Source: Pseudomonadota bacterium (GTDB lineage: Bacteria > Pseudomonadota > Alphaproteobacteria > Micavibrionales > CSBR16-224). Taken from it: 32,644 nucleotides of DNA. Below the pieces are notes generated by a model that searched no databases, was not told where the DNA came from, and saw only the letters and a list, made by a program, of their open reading frames with translations. Position 1 is the first letter of the stretch. Each line of letters starts with the position of its first letter. This document shows positions 2,805 to 23,560 of this stretch, in pieces. Where the stretch lies: the NCBI GenBank assembly GCA_051745265.1, contig JBNJDW010000002.1:1-32644 (forward strand), in the 5' to 3' direction. Position numbers and translations under genes: made by a program.

Positions 2805-2807
2805 ATT

Positions 2808-3116: not shown

Positions 3117-3206
3117 GGGCAGATCTTTTATTCAGGTGACTGTATGTTCATAGGCATAACAATAGCCCTGTTTAAAAGTTCCGATGAAAACTGATGTGCG
3201 AAAAGG

Positions 3207-5084: not shown

Positions 5085-5154
5085 CTGTCTTGCAACGCGT
5101 CGTTTAAAATGGAATTGTAAGGCTACTTATAGAGGACCAAAGGCGATACGACAA

Positions 5155-7246: not shown

Positions 7247-7291
7247 AACACTATAATATTGTTATTTATGCTGAACAGCTTAATTAAAAGT

Positions 7292-7320
7292 TTAAGACTT
7301 GTTTACCATTTTGATATACT
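7292..7320 (+). promoter_or_regulatory. Sigma70-like promoter candidate upstream of the orphan-protein/cusBA genes
   Basis: TTAAGA (7292-7297), a 17-nt spacer, then TATACT (7315-7320), lying just upstream of the 7327 ORF. This is a pattern match only. Confidence 0.3.
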
Positions 7321-7326
7321 ATAGCG

Positions 7327-7704
7327 GTGATGCGGAATTTTATGCTGACATTTCTGACCCTGATTATGCTGACGCCATCTTTGGCGTGCGCAATGGCGTA
7401 TGATATGTCACTGCCCGCAGCGCAGGAAACACAGGAACCCTGCCATAAATCCGCTGAGAAGAAAACGGATGAAGGCCCGGTTTTGATTGTCGACTGCCTT
7501 GGCGTTGATCTGTTTCAGCAGCAGGCCGATGAAGATGTCGGGCCTGATCTTTCCTTTGATATCATAGATTTTGACGGCTATGTTTCTAATGCCGACAGCC
7601 TGAATACCGGCCATAGCAACAGTATTCGTGGCCCGCCGGTGCAGCTTTCTGCCGCTTATCATCCGCCATCCGTTATTCTGACAACACAGCGTTTCAGACT
7701 CTAA
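7327..7704 (+). CDS. Hypothetical exported protein upstream of cusB
   Basis: 125-aa ORF with GTG 7327 or ATG 7330 as start. The signal peptide is FMLTFLTLIMLTPSLACA. The mature part is acidic and lacks the Met/His/Trp motif of CusF. I recognised no family. Confidence 0.5.
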   Translation: MMRNFMLTFLTLIMLTPSLACAMAYDMSLPAAQETQEPCHKSAEKKTDEGPVLIVDCLGVDLFQQQADEDVGPDLSFDIIDFDGYVSNADSLNTGHSNSIRGPPVQLSAAYHPPSVILTTQRFRL

Positions 7705-7752
7705 GCACATCTCTTTTCCGTTTATTTACACCCTTGGAAAGGAGAATTTTCT

Positions 7753-9057
7753 GTGCGTATTTTTATGTTTTTAGTTTTGTTCCTGGTTTTCACGCCGCCT
7801 GCGTTGGCTGCGGAGGACCCTTATATCTGCCCGATGCACCCGCATATCAGCGGTGAAGAAGGGGACGATTGTCCGATCTGTGGTATGTCGCTGGTCCCTA
7901 AAACCGATGAAACCCCGGTTGAAGAGGGGCCTGATGCGCATGCCGATCATCAGGACCATACGGACCATACGGACCATACGGACCATACGGATCATAATGC
8001 TGATACCGATGCTGCGAATGAAGATGCGGCGAAGGACGAAGGATTTCAAATTGATCCGTCTTATGTGCAGGCGTTGGGCGTGAAGTCCGGCGAGGTCCGT
8101 CATCATGAATTTGGCCGCAATATTCGCGCCTTTGGCGCGCTTGCCGCCAATACCCGGCTTGAGCATGCCGTTAATGTCCGGACCAATGGCTGGATTGTGG
8201 ATCTGGCGGCAGATGCGGTGGGCGATACGGTTAAAAAAGGCGATCTGTTATTCAGTTATTACAGTCCTGATCTGATGTCGGCGCAGACAGATTTTGTCAA
8301 TGCCAGGCGGGCGCGAAACCCTGAACAGCGTTTGCGCCTGTATGGTATGACCGATAAAGCCATTGCCGATGTGCGCAAAAAAGGCCAGTTTCTGGAGCAA
8401 ACGCCTTTTTATGCTCCGGCAGATGGTACCGTAACGGCGCTTGATGTTCGTAAGGGCGCCTATGTGAATGAAGGGGGCCGGGTCTTAAGCTTGCAGGACT
8501 TTTCCAAATTATGGGTCAATGTTGCAGTACCCGTGCGCGATGTTCAGTTTTTGAATACCGAAACACCGGCAGAGATCACCCTGCCTGAAACGGGCGAGAC
8601 TTATACAAGCAAGATTGATTTTATTCACCCCCTTAATGATCCGGAAAGCCGGACAACAACCGTCCGGCTGATCCTGGATAATCCAGAAGGTCAATTAAGA
8701 CCGGACACCTATGTCGATGCCGTGTTTAAGCCCGGCGTTCAATCCCGGCTGGCGGTTCCGGTCGAGGCGGTTCTTTACAGCAGTGAAGGGGCCTATGTGA
8801 TCGAACAACTGGGCGATGGTCGCTTTAGACCGGTGATGGTCGAAACAGGCATCACGGCAGAGGGCATGACGGAAATTACCGAAGGCCTGAATCACGGCCA
8901 GCAGATTGTCACCTCCGGCCAGTTTATGCTGGATGCTGAAAGCAGCCTGCGCGGTGGGATGGCCGCGATGGGCCATGATCATGGCGGTGACGATATGGAG
9001 GATATGGATATGACACCACAAGAAACACAGGAAGGTCAGGGACATGACCAGCACTGA
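7753..9057 (+). CDS. cusB: Cu(I)/Ag(I) efflux RND periplasmic adaptor (CusB-like) with N-terminal heavy-metal-binding module
   Basis: GTG start 6 nt after the SD AAGGAGAA, followed by a signal peptide. A CPMHP...CPICGM zinc-ribbon-like metal-binding module spans aa 22-49. A His/Asp-rich repeat covers aa 63-84. A membrane-fusion-protein core follows (hairpin, barrel-sandwich and beta-barrel regions). The C-terminal tail is rich in Met/His/Asp (MAAMGHDHGGDDMEDMDM...GHDQH). The gene overlaps cusA by 14 nt. Confidence 0.88.
   Translation: MRIFMFLVLFLVFTPPALAAEDPYICPMHPHISGEEGDDCPICGMSLVPKTDETPVEEGPDAHADHQDHTDHTDHTDHTDHNADTDAANEDAAKDEGFQIDPSYVQALGVKSGEVRHHEFGRNIRAFGALAANTRLEHAVNVRTNGWIVDLAADAVGDTVKKGDLLFSYYSPDLMSAQTDFVNARRARNPEQRLRLYGMTDKAIADVRKKGQFLEQTPFYAPADGTVTALDVRKGAYVNEGGRVLSLQDFSKLWVNVAVPVRDVQFLNTETPAEITLPETGETYTSKIDFIHPLNDPESRTTTVRLILDNPEGQLRPDTYVDAVFKPGVQSRLAVPVEAVLYSSEGAYVIEQLGDGRFRPVMVETGITAEGMTEITEGLNHGQQIVTSGQFMLDAESSLRGGMAAMGHDHGGDDMEDMDMTPQETQEGQGHDQH
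7945..7998 (+). repeat. In-frame 9-bp tandem repeat (4 perfect GACCATACG units plus degenerate flanking units) encoding (Asp-His-Thr)n
   Basis: The run reads GATCATCAG, then GACCATACG four times (7954-7989), then GATCATAAT. It translates to DHQ-DHT-DHT-DHT-DHT-DHN inside CusB. Confidence 0.95.
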
Positions 9058-12000
9058 TCATCTGAAAGATCCGTCCACCAGTATTGCCGCCAGAATTATT
9101 GACTGGTCGGTTAATAACCGTTTTTTTGTAATATTGGGGGCGCTGGCCTTATTGGCCGCGGGGCTTTTGTCACTGGATAAAACACCGCTGGATGCGATCC
9201 CGGATCTGTCGGATACGCAAGTGATTATCCGGACGGAATGGCCGGGGCAGGCCCCGCAGGTGGTCGAGGATCAAGTCACTTTTCCCTTATCAACACAGAT
9301 GTTATCGGTGCCCAAAACCAAAGCGGTGCGCGGCTATTCGATGTTTGGCACCAGTTTTGTCTATATCGTTTTTGAAGATGATGTTGATATGTACTGGGCC
9401 CGCAGCCGGGTGCTGGAATCCTTATCGCAGGTCAGGGGAACATTGCCTGAAGGCACGGCACCGGCCCTTGGCCCCGATGCGACGGGTGTTGGCTGGGTGT
9501 TTCAATATGCCTTATATGACCGGACGGGTCAGCATGATCTGGCGGATTTGCGCAGTCTGCAGGACTGGTTTATCCGCTATGAACTGGCCACGGTTGAGGG
9601 TGTGGCTGAAATTGCCTCTGTCGGCGGTTTTGTTAAAGAATATCAGGTAAAAATTGATCCCAATAAGCTGCGGGCCTTTGATGTTGGTTTGCAGCGTGTG
9701 ATCGATGCGGTGCGCAGCGCCAATCAGGAAACCGGTGGCCGAACATTGGAAATGGCCGAGAGCGAATATATGATCCGCTCCCTCGGTTATATTGAAGCCC
9801 CCGAAGATTTGCGGCAGGTGGTTTTAAAAAGTGATCAGGGCGTTCCCATCACCGTGGGTGATGTCGCCCGGGTGGTCGAAGGCCCGGCACTGCGCCGCGG
9901 CATTGCCGAGCTGAATGGCATGGGCGAAGCTGTTGGCGGCATCGTTGTCATGCGCCCCGGATCGAATGCCCCGCAGGTGATTGACGATGTTAAAGCCCGG
10001 CTTGAAACTATAAAACAAGGCCTGCCCGAAGGGGTCGAAATTAAAACCGTTTATGACCGCAGCGAACTGATTAAAGGCGCGGTCGGTTATCTGCAAGGCA
10101 AATTGATTGAAGAGGGGCTGATCGTCGCCTTTATCACATTGCTGTTTTTACTGCATATCCGCAGCATGCTGGTGGCGATTATCACCATCCCGCTGGGGAT
10201 TCTGGCGGCTTTTGTCGTTATGTCACTGCAGGGCATTACGGTGAATATTATGTCGCTGGGCGGGATTGCCATTGCCATTGGTACGATGGTCGATGCCTCG
10301 CTGGTGATGGTTGAAAATACCCATTATCGTTTATCGGCCTTGTCCAAAAATGCCGGACAAAAAGAACGGCGGGCGGCGATGATGGCGGCGATGAAAGAGG
10401 TCGGGCCGGGATTATTCTTTTCCCTGTTGATTATCACAGTGTCTTTCCTGCCGGTCTTTGCCTTGACCGGACAATCAGCGCGGTTGTTTTCACCGCTGGC
10501 CTATACCAACATTTATGCGATGGCAGCGGCCAGCCTGTTGGCTGTGACGTTAGTGCCGGTGCTGGTGATGTATCTGGTCCGTGGCCGTATCCGGCGTGAG
10601 GATGAAAATCCGCTTAACCGTTTTCTGGCCTTTTTGTATAAACCGGCCTTAAATCTGGTGCTGCGCTGGCGCGGGCTGACGGTTATTATTGCGCTTATCG
10701 TACTGGTCAGCACCGCCTTACCGCTGAAGAAACTGGGCAGTGAATTCATGCCGCCGCTTTATGAGGGGGGCTTATTATATATGCCGATGACATTGCCCGG
10801 CGTCTCAACGGCCAAGGCGCGGGAAATTCTGCAGGTGACCAATCGTCAACTGATGACTGTTCCTGAAGTCGAACATGTTTTCGGTAAGGCGGGGCGCTCG
10901 GATTCAGCGACTGATCCGGCGCCGCTGGCAATGATTGAAACCTGGGTTGAATTAAAGCCAAGATCCGAATGGCGGCCGGGCATGACCCCTGAAAAACTGA
11001 TTGCCGATATGAATAAACGGGTCAGCCTGCCGGGGATGATGAACAGCTGGGGCTATCCGATTAAAATCCGTCTTGATATGCTGACAACCGGTATTCGGAC
11101 ACCTGTGGGGATCAAGATCGCTGGCGATGATCTGGATGTTATTGATCAGATCGCCAAAGATGTTGAAACTCAGGCCCGTGATGTTCCGGGGACGCGCAGC
11201 GCCATTGCTGACCGGGTTGTCGGCGGTAAATACATCGAAATCGACCCCAAACGCCGTGAAATTGCCCGCCACGGGCTGGCGCTGGCCACGGTCCAGCAGG
11301 TGATCCAGACCGCCATGGGCGGTATGGCCCTTGATCAGGCGATTGAGGGGCGGGAGCGTTATCCGATTATGCTGCGTTATGACCGGCCCTTCCGCGAACA
11401 TATTTCTGATCTGGACAATATTCTGGTACCGACCCCGGCGGGGGCGCATATTCCGCTGGCCGATCTGGCGGAAATCCGCATTGCGGATGGTCCGGCGATG
11501 ATTAAATCCGAAGATGCGCGGCTGAATGGCTGGGTGTTTGTGGATATTGAAGACCGTGATCTCGGGTCTTTTGTTGCCGAGCTTCAGACTGAACTTGCCG
11601 CACTGGAACTGCCGCAGGGTTACAGCCTTAAAATTTCCGGCCAGTTTGAACAGATGCAGGACGCCAATGAAAGGCTGCGCATTGCCATTCCGGCAACGCT
11701 GTTTATCATTCTGACGCTTTTATATATACATTACGGGCGCTGGGATCGGCCCTTACTGATTATCACGGCTGTGCCTTTTGCTGTGACCGGCGGTATCTGG
11801 TTTATATGGCTGGGCGGTTATAACCTGTCGGTGGCGGTTGCGGTTGGCTTTATTGCGTTGGCCGGGGTTGCCGTAGAAACGGCGATCGTCACGATATTGT
11901 TTATTGATCAGCGTATGCGTGAAAATCCGCCAAAACTGCAAAGCGATCTGCTCGACAATGTCCGCTGGGGGGCTTTGTCGCGCTTGCGGCCCAATCTGAT

Positions 12001-12208
12001 GACGGCCTTGACGATTATTCTGGGCCTGTTGCCGATCTTTATTGTTGAAGGTCCGGGGTCGGATGTCATGCGGCGGATTGCCCTGCCTATGGTTGGCGGT
12101 ATGGCCAGTGCCCTGATCATGTCGCTTATTCTGTTGCCGGTTTTATATGCGGTCTATTTACAATGGAAGCTTAAACTGCCCGCGACAACAGAAAAGGCCA
12201 AGAGCTGA
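9044..12208 (+). CDS. cusA: Heavy-metal efflux RND pump, CusA family (Cu/Ag type)
   Basis: 1054 aa with 12-TM RND architecture. The TM4 signature GGIAIAIGTMVDASLVMVEN matches the Cu/Ag (HME4) pattern seen in E. coli CusA (GIAIAVGAMVDAAIVMIEN). It is operonic with the cusB-like gene. Confidence 0.92.
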   Translation: MTSTDHLKDPSTSIAARIIDWSVNNRFFVILGALALLAAGLLSLDKTPLDAIPDLSDTQVIIRTEWPGQAPQVVEDQVTFPLSTQMLSVPKTKAVRGYSMFGTSFVYIVFEDDVDMYWARSRVLESLSQVRGTLPEGTAPALGPDATGVGWVFQYALYDRTGQHDLADLRSLQDWFIRYELATVEGVAEIASVGGFVKEYQVKIDPNKLRAFDVGLQRVIDAVRSANQETGGRTLEMAESEYMIRSLGYIEAPEDLRQVVLKSDQGVPITVGDVARVVEGPALRRGIAELNGMGEAVGGIVVMRPGSNAPQVIDDVKARLETIKQGLPEGVEIKTVYDRSELIKGAVGYLQGKLIEEGLIVAFITLLFLLHIRSMLVAIITIPLGILAAFVVMSLQGITVNIMSLGGIAIAIGTMVDASLVMVENTHYRLSALSKNAGQKERRAAMMAAMKEVGPGLFFSLLIITVSFLPVFALTGQSARLFSPLAYTNIYAMAAASLLAVTLVPVLVMYLVRGRIRREDENPLNRFLAFLYKPALNLVLRWRGLTVIIALIVLVSTALPLKKLGSEFMPPLYEGGLLYMPMTLPGVSTAKAREILQVTNRQLMTVPEVEHVFGKAGRSDSATDPAPLAMIETWVELKPRSEWRPGMTPEKLIADMNKRVSLPGMMNSWGYPIKIRLDMLTTGIRTPVGIKIAGDDLDVIDQIAKDVETQARDVPGTRSAIADRVVGGKYIEIDPKRREIARHGLALATVQQVIQTAMGGMALDQAIEGRERYPIMLRYDRPFREHISDLDNILVPTPAGAHIPLADLAEIRIADGPAMIKSEDARLNGWVFVDIEDRDLGSFVAELQTELAALELPQGYSLKISGQFEQMQDANERLRIAIPATLFIILTLLYIHYGRWDRPLLIITAVPFAVTGGIWFIWLGGYNLSVAVAVGFIALAGVAVETAIVTILFIDQRMRENPPKLQSDLLDNVRWGALSRLRPNLMTALTIILGLLPIFIVEGPGSDVMRRIALPMVGGMASALIMSLILLPVLYAVYLQWKLKLPATTEKAKS

Positions 12209-12215
12209 GTAAAAG

Positions 12216-12254
12216 AAAAGGCCGGCACAGATTATCCCGTGCCGGCCTTTTTAT
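12216..12254. terminator. Bidirectional rho-independent terminator between convergent cusA and aminotransferase genes
   Basis: GGCCGGCAC (12220-12228) pairs perfectly with GTGCCGGCC (12239-12247) across a 10-nt loop. An A-run lies upstream (AAAAGAAAA) and a T-run downstream (TTTTTATTT). Confidence 0.75.
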
Positions 12255-12272
12255 TTAGCAGAGTCTGGATGC

Positions 12273-13682
12273 TTAGGCGGCATCCCAGACTTTTTCGCGG
12301 ATCAGTTCATCTGAAACACGGTCGATGGCGGTTTTGGCTTTACCAACAATAGTATCAACGTCTTCTTTGGTGATACACAGCGGTGGAGAGAAGCCAAGAA
12401 TATCGCCATGCGGCATAGCGCGGGCAATCATGCCTTCTTCCAGGCAGGCGTTTGATATGCGGGCACCGACTTTCAGTGTTTTATCAAAGCATTCCTTGGT
12501 GTCCCGGTTGGCGACAAATTCAATGGCTGCCATCATACCAACGCCGCGGACTTCACCGACCAATGGGTTCTGGGCAAAGGTTTCCTGCATGCGCTGCTGA
12601 AGATAACCACCGACATCGCGGGAGTTACCGGGCAGGTCTTCACGCTCAACAATATCCAGTACGGCATTTGCGGCCGCAGCGCCAAGCGGATGGCCTGTAT
12701 AGGTGTAACCATGCGGGAACATACCGGCGACATCGGAGCCCTGTTTCAGCACATCGCTGACTTTCTTGGAGACAATCGCCCCGGACAGCGGCACATAAGC
12801 ACTGGTCAGGCCTTTGGCAATGGTGATCAGGTCAGGTTCGATGTTGTATTTGGTGGCACCGAACATTTCACCTGTGCGGCCAAAGCCGGTGATGACTTCA
12901 TCACAGATCAGCAGGATGTCGTATTTCTTCAGGACCGGCTGGATGGCTTCCCAGTAGCCTTCCGGTGGCGGGGTGATGCCGCCTGTACCCAGAACCGGTT
13001 CAGCAATAAAGCCGCCGATTGTATCCGGGCCTTCGGCCAGAATCATGTCTTCGAGTTCCTGTGCCCGGCGCTTGGAGAATTCAAGCTCGGTCTCACCCGG
13101 TTTGGCATTGTGGTAATAATGCGGTGATCCGGTATGCAGGATCGGTTTGGTCGGCTGATCAAACAGCGTGTGATAGATCGGCAGACCGGTCAGGCTGCCT
13201 GAAATGATTGACGAGCCGTGATAGCCGCGTTCGCGGGAAATTATCTTTTTCTTTTCCGGCTTGCCGATGACATTGTGATAATACCAGACCAGCTTGACTT
13301 GCGTTTCGTTGGCGTCTGAACCGGACATGCCGTAGAAAATGCGCTCCATATTGCCGGGGGCCATTTTACAAATGCGTTCTGACAGGCGGATGATCGGCTC
13401 ATTCGATTGCTGGGCATAGGTGTGGCAATAGGCCAGATCCTTGGCCTGCTTGTAGATAGCATCAGCCACTTCTTCGCGGCCATACCCGATATTCATGCAA
13501 TACAGACCGGCAAAGGCATCAATCAGATTTTTGCCGTTATAATCCTGAATATTCATGCCCTTACCACCGGCAAGAATACGGGGATCGCCGGTTTTGCCTT
13601 CGGAATAATCTTTCAGGACGGTGAACGGGTGAAGTACGTGGTCTTTATCGGCTTGGGCCAGTTTTTCGAAATCAGATGTCAT
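12273..13682 (-). CDS. Class-III (omega) aminotransferase, DoeD/Atf-like (diaminobutyrate or omega-amino acid transaminase)
   Basis: 469 aa with PLP fold-type I class III features: GSDANETQ, the ICDEVITGFGRTG motif, and a Schiff-base Lys in the context DLITIAKGLTSAY. It lies 41 nt downstream of the aldehyde dehydrogenase gene and has the SD AAGGAA. Confidence 0.85.
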   Translation of the reverse strand: MTSDFEKLAQADKDHVLHPFTVLKDYSEGKTGDPRILAGGKGMNIQDYNGKNLIDAFAGLYCMNIGYGREEVADAIYKQAKDLAYCHTYAQQSNEPIIRLSERICKMAPGNMERIFYGMSGSDANETQVKLVWYYHNVIGKPEKKKIISRERGYHGSSIISGSLTGLPIYHTLFDQPTKPILHTGSPHYYHNAKPGETELEFSKRRAQELEDMILAEGPDTIGGFIAEPVLGTGGITPPPEGYWEAIQPVLKKYDILLICDEVITGFGRTGEMFGATKYNIEPDLITIAKGLTSAYVPLSGAIVSKKVSDVLKQGSDVAGMFPHGYTYTGHPLGAAAANAVLDIVEREDLPGNSRDVGGYLQQRMQETFAQNPLVGEVRGVGMMAAIEFVANRDTKECFDKTLKVGARISNACLEEGMIARAMPHGDILGFSPPLCITKEDVDTIVGKAKTAIDRVSDELIREKVWDAA

Positions 13683-13723
13683 GTTGTTTTCCTTTTCTCT
13701 CTCTTCTCTTTTGTGTGTTGATG

Positions 13724-15220
13724 TTACGCCCTGGCGTCAAGATTGCCAAGACAGATATATTTAATTTCCATGTAATCATCGAGGCCGTAATGCGATCCTT
13801 CACGACCCAGCCCGGATTGCTTGAAACCGCCAAACGGGATGGCAGATCCGGTGAATTTTGGCGTGTTCACGCCGACCATGCCGTAATCAAGCGCATTGCT
13901 GACACGGTGGCACCGGCCAATGTCATTGCTGTAGACATAGGCGGCAAGCCCGTATTCGCTGTCATTGGCCGCTTTTATCACATCGGCTTCATCAGAAAAA
14001 CGTATCAGCGCGGCGACCGGGCCGAAGGTTTCTTCGTGATAGATTTTCATCTCGGGCGTGACATCGCCAAGGACGGTGGCTTTGTAAAACAGCCCGCCTT
14101 TTTCATGGCGTTCGCCGCCGGTCAAAAGTTTGGCGCCTTTATCAAGCGCATCTTTGACATGTTCTTCGCATTTCAAAACGGCGCTTTCATTCATCAGCGG
14201 CCCCAGATCAGCGCCCTCGACAAGCCCGTCATCCATTTTCATTGCGGCTGTACCGGCGGTGAATTTTTCTGCAAATTCATCATAGATCGCGTCATGGACA
14301 TAGATGCGGTTGGCGGCAAGGCAGTCCTGCCCCGTGGTTGCGAATTTTGCGCCGATGGCACCCGGGATCACCAGATCCATATCACAGTCATCAAAAGCAA
14401 TAAACGGTGCATGACCGCCCAGCTCCATCGACATTTTCTTGACCGTATCGGCAGATTGTTTCAACAGAATACGGCCAACTTCGGTTGAGCCGGTAAAGCT
14501 GATCTTGCGGACTGTTGTGCTGTCACACAGGGTGCCGCCGATCGTCGGGCCATCACCGGTGATGACGGAGAATACGCCTTTGGGTACGCCGGCCTGCTCG
14601 CCCAGCACCGCAAGGGCCAGTGCCGAATACGGTGTTTCAGAGGCCGGACGGACAACCATGGTACAGCCGGCGGCCAGCGCCGCGCCGGCTTTGCGGGTGA
14701 TCATCGCCGATGGAAAATTCCATGGCGTGATGGCAGCGGTAACACCGACGGGATGTTTACTGACCAGCATTTGAGAATGTTGAAGATGGGTTGGGATGGT
14801 ATCGCCATAGGCGCGTTTGGCTTCCTCACCAAACCATTCAAAGAAGCTTAAGGCATAGTCAACCTCACCGCGGGATTCATTTAACGGCTTGCCTTGCTCC
14901 AGCGTCATAATCAGGGCGAGGTCTTCTTTGTTATCAAGCATCAGATCTGCCCAGCGGCGCAGGATACGGCCACGGTCTTTGGCCAGCATTGTCGACCAGT
15001 CTGCAAAGGCATCATCGGCGGCCTTGATGGCGTCTTCCGTTTCCGTCTTGCCAAAATCGGGCACCTGTCCCAGCAGGCTACCGTCAGACGGATTGGTCAC
15101 ATCGATTGCTTTTGCGCCTGTTTTCCATTGGCCATTGATATAAGCGGCTTCGCGGAAGAGGGCCTTGTTTTTAATAAGGTCAACCAGATTTACGGTCTCC
15201 GTTTTCTTGTGCGTTTGCAT
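13724..15220 (-). CDS. NAD(P)-dependent aldehyde dehydrogenase, succinate-semialdehyde dehydrogenase (GabD)/DoeC-like
   Basis: 498 aa. ALDH motifs are present: PWNFP, FTGST, the catalytic Glu in MELGG, the catalytic Cys in GQDCLAANR, and EETFGP. Confidence 0.9.
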   Translation of the reverse strand: MQTHKKTETVNLVDLIKNKALFREAAYINGQWKTGAKAIDVTNPSDGSLLGQVPDFGKTETEDAIKAADDAFADWSTMLAKDRGRILRRWADLMLDNKEDLALIMTLEQGKPLNESRGEVDYALSFFEWFGEEAKRAYGDTIPTHLQHSQMLVSKHPVGVTAAITPWNFPSAMITRKAGAALAAGCTMVVRPASETPYSALALAVLGEQAGVPKGVFSVITGDGPTIGGTLCDSTTVRKISFTGSTEVGRILLKQSADTVKKMSMELGGHAPFIAFDDCDMDLVIPGAIGAKFATTGQDCLAANRIYVHDAIYDEFAEKFTAGTAAMKMDDGLVEGADLGPLMNESAVLKCEEHVKDALDKGAKLLTGGERHEKGGLFYKATVLGDVTPEMKIYHEETFGPVAALIRFSDEADVIKAANDSEYGLAAYVYSNDIGRCHRVSNALDYGMVGVNTPKFTGSAIPFGGFKQSGLGREGSHYGLDDYMEIKYICLGNLDARA

Positions 15221-15308
15221 AGGGGCCTCTTTTTCTTTTGATCGTTTTCTAATGCAAGGAGTGTGTCACAAATAATACAAAAAATCTCACTGAACATCAG
15301 CCATATTA

Positions 15309-15354
15309 CCGCATATAATTCGGTAATATAGATTTTCTATAGAATTATATGCGG
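15309..15354. promoter_or_regulatory. 46-nt compound palindrome (13-bp perfect inverted repeat with nested 6-bp inverted repeat) between asnC stop and the dehydrogenase gene
   Basis: CCGCATATAATTC (15309-15321) pairs with GAATTATATGCGG (15342-15354). A nested pair TATAGA / TCTATA sits inside. It starts 10 nt past the AsnC stop codon. No U-run follows on the transcribed (minus) strand, so it is not a canonical terminator. Confidence 0.5.
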
Positions 15355-15363
15355 GGAATAGAC

Positions 15364-15849
15364 TTATGCGCTGTCAAAAAAGCGATCAACCGGATAGGGC
15401 GTTTTTTTAATCTGACGGGTGACAAAATAGGTGAAATAGCGGTCAATACCGGCATTGCTGTTCAGCAGCTGGTCCATCATCTGCTGGTAATGATTGATGT
15501 CATGCGAGATGAATTTGACAATATAATCAATGCCGCCGCCGACTGCATAGCACTCAATAATTTCGGGCAGTTTGATGACAACATTTTCAAAGCGCTGGAA
15601 GTCTTCCGAATGGTGCTTTTTCAAGGTGATTTCAACCATGATGGTTGAGTGAGGGGTGATTTTTTCAAAATCAATATCGGCAAGATAGCCGCGGATATAG
15701 CCTTCCTGATCCAGCTTTTTATGTCGTTCCAGACAGGCGCTGGGGGACAGGTTAACATGTTCGGCAAGCCGCTGATTGGTAAGGCGGCCATAGCGCTGTA
15801 AAGTTTCGATAATTTTAATATCTATTTTATCAAGCGCCATGGGCCGCAT
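15364..15849 (-). CDS. Lrp/AsnC family transcriptional regulator (DoeX-like position)
   Basis: 161 aa. The N-terminal HTH reads LDKIDIKIIETLQRYGRLTNQRLAEHVNLSPSACLERHKKLDQEGYIRGY, followed by a C-terminal RAM/AsnC_trans_reg domain. An alternative start is ATG 15840 (M4). Confidence 0.9.
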   Translation of the reverse strand: MRPMALDKIDIKIIETLQRYGRLTNQRLAEHVNLSPSACLERHKKLDQEGYIRGYLADIDFEKITPHSTIMVEITLKKHHSEDFQRFENVVIKLPEIIECYAVGGGIDYIVKFISHDINHYQQMMDQLLNSNAGIDRYFTYFVTRQIKKTPYPVDRFFDSA

Positions 15850-15859
15850 TTACTCCGTA

Positions 15860-16249
15860 TCAGTCATGGACAACATAGGCGCCGTCTTCGTCATGCACTT
15901 CCTGACCTGTAACCGGCGGGTTAAAGACACAGACCATGCGCATATGCGTGCCCTTGTTGGCGCGCAGAATATGGCGGTCATTCTTGTCCAGCGCATAAAT
16001 CGTTCCCACCGCAAGCGGGTGAATATCCCCCGTGGCCAGGTCTTCGATTTCGCCTTCGCCTTCTATCAGATAGACCGCTTCCAGATGGTGTTTGTACCAC
16101 ATGGTCAGCTCGGCGCCTTCTTTGATGATGGTGTCATGAACGGAATAGCCCATATTATCATCTCTTAACAATAAACGGCGGCTGTTCCAGCCTTCGGTAT
16201 CGACGTCTTTGTCTGTACCGATGATGTCTTCAAGTTTACGTACGAGCAT
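15860..16249 (-). CDS. ectC: EctC-type cupin (L-ectoine synthase family), solitary copy
   Basis: 129 aa. It is alignable end to end with canonical EctC as I recall it ([13 protein letters not shown]..., [18 protein letters not shown]-terminal [11 protein letters not shown]). Glu57, Tyr85 and His93 sit at the positions of the EctC iron ligands. SD AAGGA lies 6 nt upstream of the ATG. Confidence 0.85.
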
Positions 16250-16270
16250 GTTTTTTCCTTTTCTGTGTTT

Positions 16271-17467
16271 TTAGTCCTCTGAAGGCAGTGCGCTTTCGGC
16301 CAGATTGACCCAATATTGAACGCCGATGGGCAGAATATCGTCATTAAAGTCATAATACGGACTGTGAATTGAATAAGAAGACGAATGTTTCGGGTGATCC
16401 GGTTCGCCCTGACCAATGAATATAAAGGTACCGGGAACATCCCGAAGGAAGCTGCCGAAATCTTCACCTGACATAGACGGCGCGTAATGCATGTCAACAT
16501 TATCGGGGCCGACAATATTTGCGGCGGCCTTATGGGCAATTTCTGTCGTCTCTTCATGGTTAAAGACTTCGTCACTGTCACAGGTGACAACAACCGACGC
16601 ATTACCACCATGGGCCGAGGCAATATGCGTGCAAAGCGTACGGGTGCGCTGTTCAAGATAGCTGCGCAGGCCCGAGCTGAAGGTTCTAAGGACGCCTTTT
16701 AAGGTGACGGTTTCCGGCACAACCCCGGCATCATGCACCCCGGTTTCAAAAATCGGGAAGTAAATAGAGGCCGGTTCCATCGGATCCGTCGCTTGACTGA
16801 CCAGAGTCTGGATCGAGGTAATAATCTCACAACCGATAATCACCGGATCAATGGCACTGCTGAGTATGCCGGAATGCCCGGCTTTACCAATGATTGTGAC
16901 TTCAAGATAGGAGACAGCGGCCATCAGCCCGCCTTCACGCATGCCGAATTTGCCTTTGGAAATCCAGGGCCAGTTATGCATGCCGTAAATCTGGTCGCAG
17001 GGGAAATCTTCAAACAAGCCATCATTGATCATCCCCCGGGCGCCCATCAGTGTTTCTTCAGCAGGCTGAAAGATAAAATGGACCTTGCCGTCAAAATCGG
17101 GGTTATCTTTTAAATGTTTGGCTGCACCCAATAGCATTGTCATATGCCCGTCATGGCCGCAGGCGTGCATTTTGCCTTCGTGTTTTGATGTCCAGGTTTT
17201 GCCGGAATCTTCACTGATATCCAGCGCATCAAGGTCAGAGCGGAAGCCAATAGCCCGACCCGATTTGTTGGTTTTGCCTTCAACCGTGGCAATAAAGCCG
17301 GTCTGCGCATAGCCCGTCTTAAAATCGATGCCAAATTCCTTTAATTTTTCCTGGACGAATTTGGAGGCAAAGGTTTCCTCAAAGGCGGTTTCAGGGTGCC
17401 TGTGCAGCTCATGCCGCCACTCTATCATTTCGTCATGCAAGCTTTTGATTTCGTTACGTATCCGCAT
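16271..17467 (-). CDS. M20D-family amidohydrolase (N-acyl-amino-acid deacylase / hippurate hydrolase-like)
   Basis: The ORF track starts at 17551, but the family-typical N-terminus MRIRNEIKSLHDEMIEWRHELHRHPE begins at ATG 17467, giving 398 aa. The metal-binding motif MHACGHDGH and FQPAEE are present. Confidence 0.85.
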   Translation of the reverse strand: MRIRNEIKSLHDEMIEWRHELHRHPETAFEETFASKFVQEKLKEFGIDFKTGYAQTGFIATVEGKTNKSGRAIGFRSDLDALDISEDSGKTWTSKHEGKMHACGHDGHMTMLLGAAKHLKDNPDFDGKVHFIFQPAEETLMGARGMINDGLFEDFPCDQIYGMHNWPWISKGKFGMREGGLMAAVSYLEVTIIGKAGHSGILSSAIDPVIIGCEIITSIQTLVSQATDPMEPASIYFPIFETGVHDAGVVPETVTLKGVLRTFSSGLRSYLEQRTRTLCTHIASAHGGNASVVVTCDSDEVFNHEETTEIAHKAAANIVGPDNVDMHYAPSMSGEDFGSFLRDVPGTFIFIGQGEPDHPKHSSSYSIHSPYYDFNDDILPIGVQYWVNLAESALPSED

Positions 17468-17650
17468 CTTTTTTTGATCCTTGATGTTGGCGGTTATGCA
17501 ATAGAAGGAAATATCCCAGCACATATTATATCGACAAGGCGATAATGACAATTAATATCAGCAAAGAAGATGGCAAATATGTTGGAATACTCAAGATTCA
17601 TGTTATTTTACAGGTAATATCTCAAAGCCGGTTTTAAAGCGCAAAGGATA

Positions 17651-19840
17651 ATGCACATGAGCGAATGTTGTCACCATCACGAAAGCAAGGCCCCTGTTGA
17701 ATTGCCCAAAGGGGTTAATCCCGATGAGGTGACGTATACTTGCCCCATGCATCCCGAAATTCGCCAGCTGGGACCAGGGAACTGTCCGAAATGCGGTATG
17801 GCGCTGGAACCGGAAACAATTACCGGCGATGAGGGCGAGAATCCGGAGCTGACAGATTTCCGCCGCCGGTTCTGGGTCGGGTTGTTTTTGGCATTGCCGG
17901 TTTTTGTGCTGGAGATGGGCGGTCATGTTTTGAACCTTCATCAGTATATTGCCGGGCAGACTTCTAATATCATACAGATGGTTTTTGCAACGCCGGTGGT
18001 GCTATGGGCCGGCTGGCCGTTTTTCCAAAGGGGCTGGGCATCCGTGAAAAACTGGAATCTGAATATGTTTACCCTGATTGCGATGGGCACGGGCGTTGCC
18101 TGGATATACAGTATGGCCGGAACGCTGACACCGGGTATTTTTCCCGATACGTTTCAGAATGAGGATGGGTCGGTGCCGATCTATTTTGAGGCCGCCGCTG
18201 TGATTGTTGTGCTGGTCCTGCTGGGGCAGTTTCTTGAGCTGAAAGCCCGGGAACAGACCGGCGGCGCCATTCGGGCGTTGCTGGGGCTGGCCCCGAAAAC
18301 CGCGCGGCGTATTAATCAGGAAGGGCAGGATGAAGATGTGCCTTTGGAAGATATTCAGGAAGGCGATCTGCTGCGCGTCCGTCCGGGTGAAAAAGTGCCG
18401 CTGGATGGTGTTGTAACCGAAGGCCAGAGCGCGGTTGATGAATCCATGATCACCGGCGAATCCATGCCGGTTAAAAAACAACCGGACGGCAAAGTCATCG
18501 GCGGCACCATGAATCAGACCGGCAGCTTTGTCATGAAAGCCACCCGTGTGGGCAAAGATACAATGTTATCCCAGATCGTTCATATGGTCGCCGAAGCCCA
18601 GCGCAGCCGCGCACCGATACAGCGGCTGGCGGACATTGTCGCGGCCTGGTTTGTGCCGATTGTCATTGTGATTGCCATTGTCGCCTTTGCGGTCTGGATG
18701 TTTGTCGGACCGTCGCCGGCGTTCAGTTATGCGCTGATTGCCGCGGTCAGTGTCATGATTATTGCCTGCCCCTGCGCCCTTGGGCTGGCAACGCCGATGT
18801 CAATTATGGTGGGGGTTGGTAAGGGAGCCCAGTCCGGCGTGCTGATTAAAAATGCCGAAGCCCTGGAACAGATGAAAAAGGTTGATACGCTGGTTGTTGA
18901 TAAAACCGGAACGCTGACAGAAGGCAAGCCCACGGTTACCGATATTATTCCGGCAGAGGGTTTTGCAGAGGATCAATTGTTACAAATGGCAGCTTCGCTG
19001 GAGCAGGGCAGCGAACATCCGCTGGCCCATGCGATAATAATGGCTGCCAAAGAAAAATCTGTTGAGACGCAGAGGGTTGAAGGATTTGATTCTCCGACCG
19101 GAAAGGGTGTTATCGGTGAAATCAACGGTACGCATATTGCCCTTGGCAATGTCATGCTTATGGAGGACATCTCTGCCGATGTTTCAAGCCTATCCCAGAA
19201 GGCAGATGATCTGCGTGCTGACGGGGCGACGGTTATTTTCATCAGTGTTGATAAAAAAGCAGCGGGTCTGCTGGCGATTGCCGATCCGGTGAAAGACACA
19301 ACGCCGGATGCGATCCGTCAATTGCAGGAGATGGGCGTGCATGTTGTCATGCTGACCGGTGATAACCGCCGCACGGCCGAGGCTGTGGCAAAATCGCTGG
19401 GCATTGATGATGTCGAGGCTGAAATTCTGCCCGCAGATAAAAGCCGGATTGTTAAAAAGCTCCGCGAAGAAGGCCGCATTGTTGCCATGGCCGGGGACGG
19501 TACCAATGATGCACCGGCGCTGGCGGCGGCGGATGTTGGTATTGCCATGGGCACGGGTACAGATGTCGCGATGGAAAGTGCCGGAATTACGTTGTTGAAA
19601 GGCGATTTGACCGGGATTGTCCGGGCGCGAAAACTATCAGTGGCGGTGATGAATAATATTCGCCAGAATCTGTTTTTTGCCTTTGTTTACAATACCGCAG
19701 GCGTACCGATTGCCGCCGGGGTGCTTTACCCGTTCTTTGGTATTCTGCTGTCACCGATTATCGCAGCCGCGGCAATGTCGCTGTCCTCAGTCAGTGTGAT
19801 TGCCAATGCCTTGCGGTTGAAGCTTGTACGTTTTAAATAA
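17651..19840 (+). CDS. copA: Cu(I)-translocating P1B-1-type ATPase (CopA-like) lacking a classical HMA domain
   Basis: 729 aa. Motifs present are TGES, CPC ([12 protein letters not shown]), [17 protein letters not shown]...P in TM5 (FVYNTAGVP) and MSLSS in TM6. The N-terminus carries CCHHH plus a CPMHP...CPKCGM module in place of MxCxxC. Confidence 0.92.
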
Positions 19841-20238: not shown

Positions 20239-22257
20239 TTAGACCAAATCGCGCTTAATAACTTCGTCCCAGTTATCGGAAAAAATCCGGCGGTTTTTTT
20301 CATAGGCATCCAATGTGGCGTGAATATAGAAATTCTCGGCATCTGAGGTCAGTTCCGTGCGGGTGATAATCGAAACCTCCCAATCATCACGACGGAAAGC
20401 GCGTTCTGTATAACTGATGCCGCACAGGGAATTAAAATCACTGTCACGGAAACTGTATTGTTCTTCGGTACTGCGGCGCAGGGTCAGATTGATCTCTGGA
20501 ATATGAAAGCTGCCATTGTCATTCAGCACCTCAAGCGTTGATTTGTTTTCAACCAGATCACGGACAACACGCCAGCTGTGGCGTGGTTCGGTTTGTTGCT
20601 GGGTTACAAGTTCGGCTGCACCTTCGGGTGCGCCGAAAGGCCGTAACGCGGTTTCTTCATATGCCGGGCGTTCGGGGATATACAGCCGACTTCCGGATGT
20701 CCGCAAGGTCAGGCAGACCGGTTCCGGCGGCGCCCAGGCCAGCGGAAAATATGTGCTGGAGACCGCCAGTCTGAGTTTATGACCTGCCGGTATCCGCTGC
20801 GCCATACCGTTTAAGGGAACCCTGACGCGATAAAAACGGCCCGGTTCCAGCGGTTCAGGATTTTCATGGCTGTTACGGTGGGTCAGGTTCAGAAGGCCGT
20901 AGGTGATCCGCGTTGCCCGGCCATCGGGCATGATATCAGATAACCGCACCACCACCTGGGCAACGGGTTTATCGGCAGCGACCTCCAGTTCAACTACCGG
21001 GCTGCCGAGGATCTCCATTTCCTCACTTAATTGGTCTGTGTCAAAAATAAGCGCGCCGCCATCTTCTTCGCGCTGATCATGCGGTAAATCCGGTAAAGCA
21101 GAATAAGAGCACCATTTTCCGGCAAACATACCGACGGATAGGGGCGATTGGATGCTTTCCTCTATATCGATAATGACGTCTTCTTCTTCGGTCAAATGGC
21201 GATAGCCCAGACCAAAACAGCGTTCTTTTATATTTGACGACGGCCAGACGGTTTCGGTCACCCAGCGACCGGGACGATCCTGATAGGAGGTCGCCGGCGG
21301 CATCGGATCCTGCATCCAGACGCGCAACATCGGGTCCTGATCAATACCGGTATCATCGCCCTTCAACCAGTGGTCAAACCAGCGCAGAACTTCCTGTAGA
21401 AAGCCCGTAGCCGGACCCGGAATGCCCATATGCGGATAACGGTGCCCCCAGGGGCCGATAAGCCCCCGACGCGGCACTTCAAGATGTTCAAGCAGCCGGA
21501 AAATGGCATTGGTATAGCCGTCTGTCCAGCCGCCGACCGCCATGACCGGACATTTGATCTGACTATAATCTTCACAGACGGAGCCTGTTTTCCAAAAATC
21601 ATCACGGTGTTGGTGTTCCAGCCAGTTTTTCAGCCATAGTCCGCTGCCTTTCAGGCGGTCCAGCCACATTTCGCGCCAGCGTTCACCGATAAGCTCTGGA
21701 TCAGGCGGCAGGCTGTTAAAGGCAAACATGACCGTTGCTTCTGACAGGTGGTCCCCCAAAAGACAGCCGCCCATATAATGCATGTTATCTTCATACTGAT
21801 CATCAGACGCGCAGCAGGAAATAATCGCCTTGAGCGCCTCGGGCTGGCGGGCGGCCAGTTGAAGTGAATTAAACCCGCCCCAGGAAATGCCCATCATACC
21901 GAGATTACCGTTACACCAGTCCTGTTGCGCGATCCAGTTAATGACCGCAACACCATCGGATAATTCCTGTTCGGTATATTCATCGGTCAGAATGCCGTCA
22001 GATTCCCCGCTGCCGCGCATATCAACACGAATGCAGGCATAACCATGTCCGGCCAGATAAGGATGGTTTACAGCATCCCGGGCGCGGGTCATGTCCCGTT
22101 TGCGGTAGGGCAGATATTCCAGAATAGCGGGCACCGGATGTGTTTCGGCATCTTCCGGCAACCAGATTTTTGCACTGACCATAGCGCCATCGGGTAGCGG
22201 AATAAAAAAATGTTCTATGACGCGGGTCTTGTGCGGAAAAGTATCAATATGTTGCAC
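20239..22257 (-). CDS. CocE/NonD family alpha/beta hydrolase (peptidase S15, X-Pro dipeptidyl-peptidase-like)
   Basis: The ORF track starts at 22443, but that extension overlaps the upstream gene. GTG 22257 follows the SD AAGGAGGA and gives 672 aa. The N-terminal segment EYLPYRKRD and the nucleophile elbow GISWGG are present, with a large C-terminal beta-sandwich region typical of CocE/NonD. Confidence 0.85.
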   Translation of the reverse strand: MQHIDTFPHKTRVIEHFFIPLPDGAMVSAKIWLPEDAETHPVPAILEYLPYRKRDMTRARDAVNHPYLAGHGYACIRVDMRGSGESDGILTDEYTEQELSDGVAVINWIAQQDWCNGNLGMMGISWGGFNSLQLAARQPEALKAIISCCASDDQYEDNMHYMGGCLLGDHLSEATVMFAFNSLPPDPELIGERWREMWLDRLKGSGLWLKNWLEHQHRDDFWKTGSVCEDYSQIKCPVMAVGGWTDGYTNAIFRLLEHLEVPRRGLIGPWGHRYPHMGIPGPATGFLQEVLRWFDHWLKGDDTGIDQDPMLRVWMQDPMPPATSYQDRPGRWVTETVWPSSNIKERCFGLGYRHLTEEEDVIIDIEESIQSPLSVGMFAGKWCSYSALPDLPHDQREEDGGALIFDTDQLSEEMEILGSPVVELEVAADKPVAQVVVRLSDIMPDGRATRITYGLLNLTHRNSHENPEPLEPGRFYRVRVPLNGMAQRIPAGHKLRLAVSSTYFPLAWAPPEPVCLTLRTSGSRLYIPERPAYEETALRPFGAPEGAAELVTQQQTEPRHSWRVVRDLVENKSTLEVLNDNGSFHIPEINLTLRRSTEEQYSFRDSDFNSLCGISYTERAFRRDDWEVSIITRTELTSDAENFYIHATLDAYEKNRRIFSDNWDEVIKRDLV

Positions 22258-22267
22258 AAGTCCTCCT

Positions 22268-23560
22268 TTATATTTCCAGATGTCCGTTATCACTGAATTC
22301 AAGCGGGATACGCGGGACCAGCCGGCGATAACAATTTTGTAATTCCTCTGCGGACTCAGCGCCGATCCAGACATCACCGATATGGTAACAATAGACCGGT
22401 TGCTCTGGTAATTCTGATAACTGATCGCCCTGCTTAACGCCAAGCTCGATCAGGGCATCATTGAATTCTTTTGATAAGGCTTCAATTTCTTCGGCGCTGG
22501 GCATGTGACTAACCTTGGCATCACCATGTTTGCTGAGATAAAATTTAGCAGCAACCTTACAGGAACCGCTTTCATGCGGAAAATGCGGTTCATGGCCCAA
22601 AGCAACACTGACGGCAATTTCATGATTGGACATGCCGTCCACTTTGCGGAACATTTCACAATGTGATTGGGAAATCCGTGCGTTGACTTCAATAATCCAG
22701 AGTTTGTCGGCAGCGGCATTCCATTGGAATTCAACATTAAAGCAGCCGTTATCAAAGCCGACCTGCTCCAGAATTAACCGGCAGGCTTCATGGCTCTTTT
22801 TCTCCAGCCACGGGGGCAGATCAGCGGGGTATTTTAGCCCGGCCACCGTTTTGCCGTTATCCGTGAAAAACATGTCAAACAGGCCATGGATTTTCATCTG
22901 ACCATTCAGAACATAGCCTTCGGGGGCGAACTGGTTACCGCTTATGATGCCTTCGGCAATGGCGTGGTAGCCGCCGATGCCTTTGATTTCATCCGGCAGT
23001 TCAGCATGTTTCAGGCACGCATCAAAGGCCTGACCAAGTTCGCCGATATGTTCGCGCATTTGCTGTAATGCGTTGTCAAGCTGGCTACGGTTTTGAATGC
23101 GAAAGCCCAGTAATGAGGCAAATCCCTTCACCGGTTTTAACCAGAACGGAAAATCCAGACTGATTTTGTCAGCGGCTTTGGGGTCAAAGGGATCGACGGC
23201 TTCAAATTCAGGGATTAAATCCGGGACAACACGCTGTTGTTCCAACCGGGCCCAGTATTTATGCTCACATTTCAGCACTGATTCAAGCGATGGTGCCGGC
23301 AGGCCGTATTCCGCGGCCAGTACAGGGGCAAGACAGCTGGACGGAAAATCCCAGTGACAGACAAAGGCATCAGGTTTCAGGCCGGAGGTTTCAATTTGTT
23401 GCCGGGCACGTTGTAAAAGATCATCAAAGCCAAGATGTTGTTCAATAAGTTCTTCCGTGCTCAGCAGAGAAATAAAATTATAATCCTCGGCATGATCGAT
23501 GGTGTCAAGTTCATCCCGCTGCCAGTCAAGCATTCCAAATACATAAATATTCTTAGCCAT
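22268..23560 (-). CDS. ATP-grasp domain protein (putative carboxylate-amine ligase)
   Basis: 430 aa. The central region fits the ATP-grasp pattern (FPFWLKPVKGFASLLGFRI, AIAEGIISGNQF, FNVEFQW...LWIIEVNARISQ). Its TAA stop (22268-22270) lies inside the SD of the downstream hydrolase gene. Confidence 0.8.
   Translation of the reverse strand: MAKNIYVFGMLDWQRDELDTIDHAEDYNFISLLSTEELIEQHLGFDDLLQRARQQIETSGLKPDAFVCHWDFPSSCLAPVLAAEYGLPAPSLESVLKCEHKYWARLEQQRVVPDLIPEFEAVDPFDPKAADKISLDFPFWLKPVKGFASLLGFRIQNRSQLDNALQQMREHIGELGQAFDACLKHAELPDEIKGIGGYHAIAEGIISGNQFAPEGYVLNGQMKIHGLFDMFFTDNGKTVAGLKYPADLPPWLEKKSHEACRLILEQVGFDNGCFNVEFQWNAAADKLWIIEVNARISQSHCEMFRKVDGMSNHEIAVSVALGHEPHFPHESGSCKVAAKFYLSKHGDAKVSHMPSAEEIEALSKEFNDALIELGVKQGDQLSELPEQPVYCYHIGDVWIGAESAEELQNCYRRLVPRIPLEFSDNGHLEI

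Follow-up and report, generated by a model that had tools for sequence, protein, structure and literature searches.

On the minus strand of the window (the whole stretch of DNA analysed here, 32,644 nucleotides of contig JBNJDW010000002.1 from a bacterium of the alphaproteobacterial order Micavibrionales) lies a five-gene module that is laid out like an ectoine catabolic cluster but carries an ectoine synthase orthologue, EctC, and an M20-family aminoacylase in the slots of the ectoine hydrolase and the deacetylase. Ectoine is a major osmolyte in marine and soil environments, and it is also a nutrient. The arrangement recurs in related genomes and suggests a synthase substituting for the usual ring-opening enzyme. 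A possible route, which we put forward tentatively, is that EctC equilibrates ectoine with N-acetyl-2,4-diaminobutyrate (N-acetyl-DABA), that deacetylation by the M20 enzyme pulls this reaction, and that conversion of 2,4-diaminobutyrate (DABA) to aspartate follows.

Layout of the module and comparison with canonical clusters

The preliminary description of this DNA had identified five minus-strand genes at 12273-17467 together with a 143-nt palindromic gap, and coordinates and profile scores agree with that identification (Table 1). Intergenic spacings along the module are 21, 10, 143 and 41 nt; because of these gap sizes and a hairpin terminator past the last gene, the module reads as two tight units, M20-ectC-asnC and a unit of aldehyde dehydrogenase (ALDH) and aminotransferase (AT). 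The parallel to doe clusters that had been drawn earlier is confirmed at this level, the two units matching doeA-doeB-doeX and doeC-doeD, as in the doeABX + doeCD arrangement of H. elongata (PMC3187862). The longest open reading frame (ORF) of the M20 gene has a TTG start at 17551, and the ATG start is preferred because homologues are 397-400 aa long.

With the canonical doe/eut clusters (doeABX-doeCD of H. elongata, eutDE-asnC-ssd-atf of R. pomeroyi, and the Sinorhizobium cluster L170, which is ordered asnC-ssd-atf-enuR-eutB-eutC-doeA-doeB-ehuBCDA) the module shares an AsnC/Lrp regulator, a dehydrogenase of the succinate-semialdehyde dehydrogenase (SSADH) type and a class-III aminotransferase in the same relative order. 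It is also like them in placing a unit of hydrolytic enzymes and regulator before a unit of dehydrogenase and transaminase. Unlike them, it is without an M24 hydrolase (DoeA/EutD; TIGR02993 or NF038259), an AstE/AspA-type DoeB/EutE, EnuR, EutABC and an Ehu/Ueh/Tea transporter, and has EctC and the M20 aminoacylase in the hydrolase and deacetylase slots. The 32.6-kb window contains no ectA, ectB, ask, ectR, doeA, doeB, eutB, eutC, enuR or ectoine transporter, which upholds the earlier statement that ectA, ectB and such a transporter are missing from it. Peptidase_M24, AstE/AspA deacetylase, GNAT, a second class-III transaminase, MocR, a solute-binding protein and SBP/TRAP domains are likewise absent among the window ORFs.

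Table 1 Features of the module in the window, with proposed roles
Feature	Position	Strand	Description
M20D-type aminoacylase	16271-17467	minus	398 aa from ATG; leads the M20-ectC-asnC unit; proposed N-acetyl-DABA deacetylase
EctC, bona fide ectoine-synthase orthologue	15860-16249	minus	129 aa; 21 nt downstream of the M20 gene
AsnC/Lrp-family regulator, DoeX/AsnC analogue	15364-15849	minus	161 aa; 10 nt downstream of ectC
Intergenic region, putative AsnC operator and candidate ALDH-AT promoter	15221-15363	minus	143 nt
SSADH-family aldehyde dehydrogenase (ALDH), DoeC/Ssd analogue	13724-15220	minus	498 aa; proposed conversion of aspartate semialdehyde to aspartate
Class-III (omega) aminotransferase (AT), DoeD/Atf analogue	12273-13682	minus	469 aa; proposed conversion of DABA to aspartate semialdehyde
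Intrinsic-terminator-like hairpin after the AT gene	12216-12251	minus	16-bp stem with 9 G-C pairs, then CTTTT; closes the ALDH-AT unit

Identity of EctC and selection on its gene

The window EctC passes the cut-offs of both PF06339 (197 bits, cut-off 27) and NF009806 (196.4 bits, cut-off 128). It is 59% identical over 123 aligned residues to the crystallised EctC of P. lautus (PlEctC, 5ONM) and 67-74% (about 70%) identical to betaproteobacterial EctCs encoded in ectABCD clusters. Published identities to PlEctC are 49-90% for cluster-encoded synthases and 37-42% for orphan EctCs (PMC6344544). The active site was compared in PlEctC numbering at the Fe ligands Glu57, Tyr84 and His92 and at the ligand-binding residues Trp21, Ser23, Arg25, Asn38, Thr40, Tyr52 and Phe106. 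In the alignment to 5ONM every one of these is kept except Asn38, which is His, and W21, S23, R25, T40, Y52, E57, Y85, H93 and F109 of the window protein are conserved. The exchange at position 38 was considered as a mark of altered function and rejected: His38 occurs in 169 sampled EctCs, many of them encoded by ectABC(D) clusters. Phylogenetic placement, a check proposed in the preliminary description, puts the protein among bona fide synthases and outside the orphan clades. Given this placement it is a bona fide ectoine-synthase orthologue, and ectoine and N-gamma-acetyl-DABA (N-gamma-ADABA) are its predicted substrate pair.

EctC is kept under strong purifying selection. Between the window and its close relative L085, neither of which has ectAB nearby, dN of EctC is 0.027 and dS 0.70, and the resulting dN/dS of 0.039 is indistinguishable from that of the partner genes (AT 0.033, ALDH 0.053, M20 0.038, AsnC 0.039); this comparison alone is fully reliable, most cross-lineage dS values being saturated. 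Reading frame and active site of EctC are intact in all module loci.

Related loci and origin of the module

An exact-match look-up of the window EctC itself found no record. Its nearest relatives (80-95% identity) stem from marine metagenomes and metagenome-assembled genomes that bear the label "uncultured Micavibrio sp." or Alphaproteobacteria. Below these, at 74% identity or less, follows a tier that is mostly betaproteobacterial (Hydrogenophaga, Thauera, Azoarcus and others) and belongs, where the contig is long enough, to ordinary ectABC(D) clusters. For the close clade we recovered about 20 loci on independent contigs, in six gene arrangements (Table 2). Every sufficiently long locus links ectC to AsnC, ALDH and AT, and all but one link it to M20 as well; co-conservation of the five genes in relatives had been set beforehand as a test, and it is strongly borne out. 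DoeA, DoeB, EutB, EutC, EnuR, EhuB, EctD and ectoine transporters were found within 10 kb at none of the module loci, and tblastn with Sinorhizobium DoeA gave no match in the window or at any of these loci. The absence of doeA/doeB that was to be looked for in relatives is thus seen over this distance. Neither ectA nor ectB accompanies ectC in the 32.6-kb window or in the loci of types A, B, C and F; both are present in L165, L166, L006 and L172.

Table 2 Gene arrangements in the close EctC clade
Type	Gene order	Loci
A	M20-EctC-AsnC-ALDH-AT	window; L085 (92-96% protein identity); L168, L169, L174, L175
B	M20-AsnC-ALDH-AT-EctC	L002-4, L007, L086; L087 partial
C	type B order minus M20	L001/L005, complete 2.1-Mb chromosome (OZ244161.1)
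D	M20-AsnC-ALDH-AT, then ask, ectB, ectA on the opposite strand, then ectR-ectC	L165, L166, L006
E	ectA-ectB-ask-M20-AsnC-ALDH-AT co-directional, divergent ectR-ectC	L172; L173 partial contig (ectB-ectA, ectR-ectC), same arrangement
F	AsnC-ALDH-AT on one strand, M20-EctC bicistron on the other	L177, L178

A comparison of types B and D indicates how loci with and without synthesis genes are related. On both flanks L165 (type D) is collinear with L002 (type B), the ask-ectB-ectA-ectR block being the sole difference, and these two loci group as a pair in each of the neighbour-joining trees built for EctC, M20, ALDH and AT. L172 (type E) stands beside the type A group in the EctC and M20 trees and near the base in the AT and ALDH trees, so that ectAB-bearing loci occupy two places in the four trees. 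Between L172 and L165, EctA and EctB share 69-72% identity, a divergence about that of the module genes, and the EctC orthologues that accompany ectA, ectB, ask and ectR in sister genomes are 80-86% identical to the window protein. In L165 (5802-10390) and L172 (5303-9992) ectC stands apart from ectA-ectB-ask, and is transcribed with a MarR-type ectR on the opposite strand, and this unusual ect cluster as a whole is fused to M20-asnC-ALDH-AT. As the simplest reading of these sequences, the ancestor would have been an ect cluster with ectC already beside ectR, fused to doe-like genes without doeA. Since the ectAB loci fall in two places in the trees, ectA, ectB, ask and ectR were probably lost at least twice, with ectC retained on every occasion. 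Types A and F also have ectC relocated to directly after the M20 gene.

This history qualifies the earlier proposal that the first two doe enzymes had been replaced. EctC and M20 do occupy their slots; a simple swap it was not, as ectC is a retained biosynthetic gene, given that sister genomes carry ectA-ectB-ask and ectR-ectC fused to M20-asnC-ALDH-AT.

The gaps between the M20 gene and ectC measure about 20-55 nt across loci, and in L002 (9984-10000) 17 nt separate the AT stop from the ectC start. In L086, a terminator-like hairpin lies between AT and ectC (9834-10000), and ectC is probably transcribed alone there. In L169 the ALDH gene (2046-3550) is broken up into one ORF of 191 aa and one of 310 aa, by a frameshift or an assembly error on this low-coverage contig. 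Type A loci have varied surroundings: cusBA/copA in the window and L085, a position after rlmL and near an integrase in L168, and one after a Sel1/PG-binding gene in L174. Types B and D are situated between an RND pump and hutGUHI. An arginase-family gene that follows ectC in these two types was considered as a member of the module and rejected; it is hutG of the adjacent hutGUHI cluster.

The M20 aminoacylase and the other module proteins

The M20 protein scores 135 bits against PF01546 and 298 bits against TIGR01891 (cut-off 154). Against the DoeB2 model NF038260 the module proteins miss the equivalog cut-off of 550, with 294.4 bits for the window, 306.9 for L165 and 301.5 for L177, and the generic TIGR01891 scores them equal to or above that model. 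The nearest PDB entries are ILL2 (1XMB), YxeP (1YSJ), 4EWT and an N-alpha-acyl-glutamine aminoacylase (6SLF). Homologues of 56% identity or more form an M20 clade that occurs solely in this module; those that come next (48% or less) stand in unrelated contexts, and the nearest outgroup protein (P0263, 45% identity) was rejected as a clue to the substrate for its housekeeping context. Among plasmids, a search for a genuine DoeB2 found none so labelled; all matches were at most 42% identical and named "M20 aminoacylase".

An M20 deacetylase in the place of DoeB is already known in kind from the NCBIfam DoeA2/DoeB2 models, and the unusual point is that its neighbour here is EctC rather than an M24 hydrolase. 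In clusters of the DoeA2/DoeB2 type (NF038259/NF038260), an M20-family amidohydrolase serves as N-acetyl-DABA deacetylase instead of an AstE/AspA-type DoeB, a likeness to what we propose for the module; unlike the module, they keep the M24 ectoine hydrolase and have no EctC. The doeBDAC cluster of methylotrophs may belong to this type, because its DoeB is 22% identical to that of H. elongata (PMC7192451). The earlier argument that the gamma isomer calls for a different deacetylase has to be dropped as a requirement, an M20-type, N-alpha-specific DoeB2 being curated already.

The dehydrogenase scores 553 bits against PF00171 and 655.7 bits against the SSADH model TIGR01780 (cut-off 646.35), and the aminotransferase 290 bits against Aminotran_3 (PF00202) and 765 bits against PRK07482 (cut-off 687). 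They are 55% (ALDH) and 66% (AT) identical to Ssd and Atf of the canonical cluster of Sinorhizobium sp. B11 (L170). The regulator has the domains PF01037 (AsnC_trans_reg, C-terminal RAM), PF13412 (HTH_24) and PF13404 (N-terminal HTH), scores 118 bits against Lrp NF008370 (cut-off 233), and is just 27% identical to AsnC of the canonical Sinorhizobium cluster.

Proposed pathway and rival explanations

In the proposed pathway the five-gene unit would convert ectoine and N-acetyl-DABA to aspartate, using EctC and M20 in place of DoeA/DoeB (EutD/EutE). EctC would equilibrate intracellular ectoine with N-acetyl-DABA, mainly the gamma isomer and possibly the alpha isomer too, and the co-transcribed M20 enzyme would cleave the acetyl group irreversibly, thereby pulling the unfavourable ring opening. 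The class-III aminotransferase would then turn DABA into aspartate semialdehyde, the SSADH-type dehydrogenase would oxidise this to aspartate, and the AsnC/Lrp protein would control the ALDH-AT unit via a conserved palindromic box. We infer in which direction EctC works in vivo, on which substrate and with which regiospecificity the M20 enzyme acts, which ligand the AsnC protein binds, and that doeA is absent genome-wide. It is quite possible, though we stop short of calling it probable, that EctC is the physiological ring-opening enzyme, coupled to a dedicated M20 deacetylase in a DoeA/DoeB-independent ectoine catabolism of a marine alphaproteobacterial lineage.

Comparative genomics supports EctC-driven catabolism: ectC was repeatedly kept and moved with the module after loss of ectAB, doeA is absent at every locus, and M20 and ectC form a bicistron. 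There is precedent for the pull, in that EutD requires EutE for efficient ectoine degradation (PMC8739950), and the EctC reaction was reversible in crude extract according to Peters (1990, as cited in PMC3187862). The EutD/EutE bimodule (Mais et al. 2020, as cited in PMC8739950) likewise sets the gene of a ring-opening enzyme beside that of a needed deacetylase. The folds are unrelated, however, with a cupin for M24 and M20 for AstE/AspA, and the EctC-M20 coupling is suggested by gene adjacency only. No report of a coupled EctC-deacetylase assay was found in the searchable literature. Pairs of M24 and M20 genes were found in other doe-like clusters.

Several points weigh against this pathway. 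The equilibrium of EctC favours ectoine, purified EctCs hydrolyse ectoine negligibly (PMC6344544, PMC5924519, PMC3187862), and purified H. elongata EctC gave no reverse reaction at 10 mM to 1 M ectoine (Ono 1999). All of the closest M20 relatives with solved structures hydrolyse N-alpha-acyl amino acids, and the curated DoeB2 family acts specifically on the N2-acetyl isomer, whereas reversed EctC would give mainly the N-gamma isomer. In types D and E, a gamma-specific deacetylase would undo the work of EctA in a futile cycle. L001 has no M20 gene nearby, and no ectoine transporter is linked to the module at any locus. The AT is equally similar (65%) to rhizobial paralogues in other doe-like or non-ectoine contexts, so that similarity alone leaves its substrate unfixed. 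An unlinked doeA, or unlinked ectAB, may lie elsewhere in the genome; an unlinked DoeA is a serious rival, and so is salvage in the forward direction.

The first of these can be put as follows: an unlinked M24 enzyme of the DoeA/DoeA2 type would make N-alpha-ADABA, M20 would be a DoeB2-like N-alpha deacetylase, and EctC would serve synthesis with distant ectAB or recycle N-gamma-ADABA formed as a by-product. The curated DoeB2 model NF038260 is indeed among the top NCBIfam models for the module M20 proteins (294-307 bits), but its cut-off of 550 is missed widely and generic models score equally. The solved M20D relatives use N-alpha-acyl substrates, doe genes are scattered in some methanotrophs (PMC7192451), and ectC stands apart from ectAB in some genomes (PMC3187862). 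Against this, no M24 hydrolase lies within 10 kb in the roughly 20 loci and their six arrangements, while eutD normally adjoins eutE (363 genomes, PMC8739950). Of the closest EctA relatives listed, one contig alone, the 80.1-kb contig of the ectAB-bearing type E, agrees in length with a module locus; this is weak evidence, as the listing covers cluster representatives only. On balance we regard an unlinked hydrolase as unlikely. We give a similarly low rating to salvage in the forward direction, in which N-gamma-ADABA would be taken up or obtained from prey or neighbours and cyclised by EctC to ectoine for osmoprotection, while M20, AT and ALDH would turn any excess of N-acetyl-DABA and DABA into aspartate. 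Purified EctCs have been shown to run in the forward direction alone, the active site of the window protein is unaltered, the module descended from a biosynthetic cluster, and the solitary EctC of P. syringae yielded ectoine with precursor from plant material (PMC5924519). Yet the environment should offer far less N-gamma-ADABA than ectoine, and no uptake system is linked to the module. It would also be odd for EctC to be co-transcribed with a competitor for its precursor, the deacetylase, and ectC was repeatedly kept or relocated beside catabolic genes, not beside osmostress genes or transporters.

A shift of EctC specificity towards a related substrate, such as another cyclic amidine, hydroxyectoine or an N-acyl-diamino acid, appears very unlikely. 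EctC is promiscuous in vitro (homoectoine, DHMICA, ADPC) and paralogous doe-like clusters exist, for example on R. etli pRetMIM1e; still, all ectoine/ADABA ligand residues are kept, no ectD or eutABC is nearby, and the orthologues of 80-86% identity sit with ectA, ectB, ask and ectR, where ectoine must be the product. Least credible of all, and effectively refuted, is that ectC is a non-functional relic of a deleted ect cluster, adjacent by descent only. The clean ask-ectB-ectA-ectR deletion that separates types B and D, leaving ectC behind, would fit such a remnant. Within type A, a lineage that lacks ectAB, the dN/dS of 0.04 matches that of neighbouring enzymes and argues against it, as do the intact frame and active site in all loci and the movement of ectC between M20 and asnC (type A) or after M20 (type F), by which it travels with the module into new contexts.

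The 143-nt regulatory gap

The gap between asnC and the ALDH gene contains a perfect 13-nt inverted repeat, CCGCATATAATTC/GAATTATATGCGG, at 15309-15321 and 15342-15354, with a nested 12-nt repeat at 15303-15314 and 15318-15329. In an alignment of the AsnC-ALDH spacers of 8 related loci the box CCG.ATA..ATT (consensus CCGAATAAWATTCGG) is invariant. A second, degenerate copy follows about 31-33 nt further on, and after it the conserved blocks TT..GTG..A and TG..A.A.T. The 13-nt inverted repeat of the window embraces the conserved boxes, one arm overlapping the invariant box. Without mismatch, the full 15-nt consensus occurs in the window at 15309-15323 only; the degenerate 15-nt pattern is not enriched across it (6 matches against 4.6 expected). 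With counts in the window near expectation, the significance of the box rests on its conservation across loci, and we consider it a putative AsnC/Lrp operator before ALDH-AT. Upstream of the M20 gene no conserved box of the AsnC type was found. A clean sigma-70 promoter for ALDH-AT was sought and rejected, the conserved blocks yielding no convincing -35/-10 pair in the window.

Solitary EctC proteins and significance

Solitary or orphan EctCs are encoded by ectC genes without adjacent ectA/ectB, as in the window, and include those of P. syringae B728a, Burkholderia and Marinobacter (PMC5924519, PMC6344544); the function of such proteins has been called unresolved since 2010 (PMC5924519, PMC6344544). 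Whereas the classical orphans are divergent and basal in the EctC tree, the window EctC nests with cluster-encoded EctCs and has a traceable descent from an ect cluster. It also has a conserved catabolic neighbourhood, of which none is reported for orphans in the searchable literature, and full-text literature searches found no report of ectC inside a catabolic module. With EctR-controlled ectABC-ask clusters, the sister loci L165 and L172 share a MarR-type ectR, ectA, ectB and ask in addition to ectC. They differ in splitting ectC from ectAB (with ectR, on the opposite strand) and in the fusion to M20-asnC-ALDH-AT, and the window has lost ectR, ectA, ectB and ask.

The synteny evidence is strong, the five genes have congruent phylogenies, and the mechanism is proposed on the basis of sequence comparison. 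If the proposal is true, it would provide the first defined function for a subset of the "solitary" EctC proteins, and a clade that combines traceable ectAB loss, a selected ectC and conserved partners makes the solitary-ectC question testable. Counts of ectoine consumers rely on juxtaposed eutD/eutE (PMC8739950, PMC13188858), and a DoeA-less module would by design escape surveys keyed to EutD/EutE. Should EctC reverse in vivo, one enzyme would serve both synthesis and degradation, the direction being set by the presence of EctA or of the deacetylase, which would bear on the engineering of ectoine producers and on avoiding product loss. Should it not reverse, the clade is still notable for the unusual way in which ect and doe genes are fused and for a new lineage of M20 proteins tied to DABA metabolism.

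Further EctC and doe-like loci and the surroundings of the module

A second group of solitary EctCs, at about 61% identity, was recovered from marine metagenome contigs (L145, L146, L149-L151, L153-L155, L157-L160, L162-L164); within 10 kb of them lie neither ectA/ectB nor doe-like genes. The EctC gene of L151 is located between transposase/integrase genes and a P-type ATPase. The group was considered as a further example of the module and rejected, L151 having transposase genes and a P-type ATPase and no doe-like genes.

The paralogous doe-like cluster on plasmid pRetMIM1e of Rhizobium etli Mim1 (L179; NC_021909.1, 266000-288000) is ordered MocR, AsnC, a four-gene ABC transporter, an M24 "Xaa-Pro peptidase", an M20 aminoacylase, a second MocR, an AT (65% identical to the window AT), an ALDH and a Glu/Leu/Phe/Val dehydrogenase. 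Its M24 protein scores 277 bits against the DoeA model (cut-off 613) and its M20 protein 321 bits against the DoeB2 model (cut-off 550).

In the window, as in L085, the module is flanked by genes of the copper/silver-resistance type. On one side (7753-12208) these encode a CusB-like protein with HMBD and a HTDHTDHTDHTDH repeat, plus CusA, and on the other (17651-19840) a CopA-type P-type ATPase with HMBD. Besides these cusBA-like and copA-like genes, the window contains a TonB receptor, an ABC-F protein, an S15 peptidase, an ATP-grasp protein, CsgG, a LuxR regulator and cytochrome oxidase genes. The minus-strand ATP-grasp gene (22268-23560) adjoins the S15 (CocE/NonD-type) peptidase gene (20239-22443), the listed ORFs overlapping, and these two genes may have nothing to do with the module. 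Over 4858-19840, which takes in cusBA, the module and copA, the window is collinear with L085 at about 83% DNA identity. Nothing in L085 corresponds to the segment 20343-23481, which comprises most of the S15 X-Pro dipeptidyl-peptidase-family gene and the ATP-grasp gene and marks an indel between close relatives.

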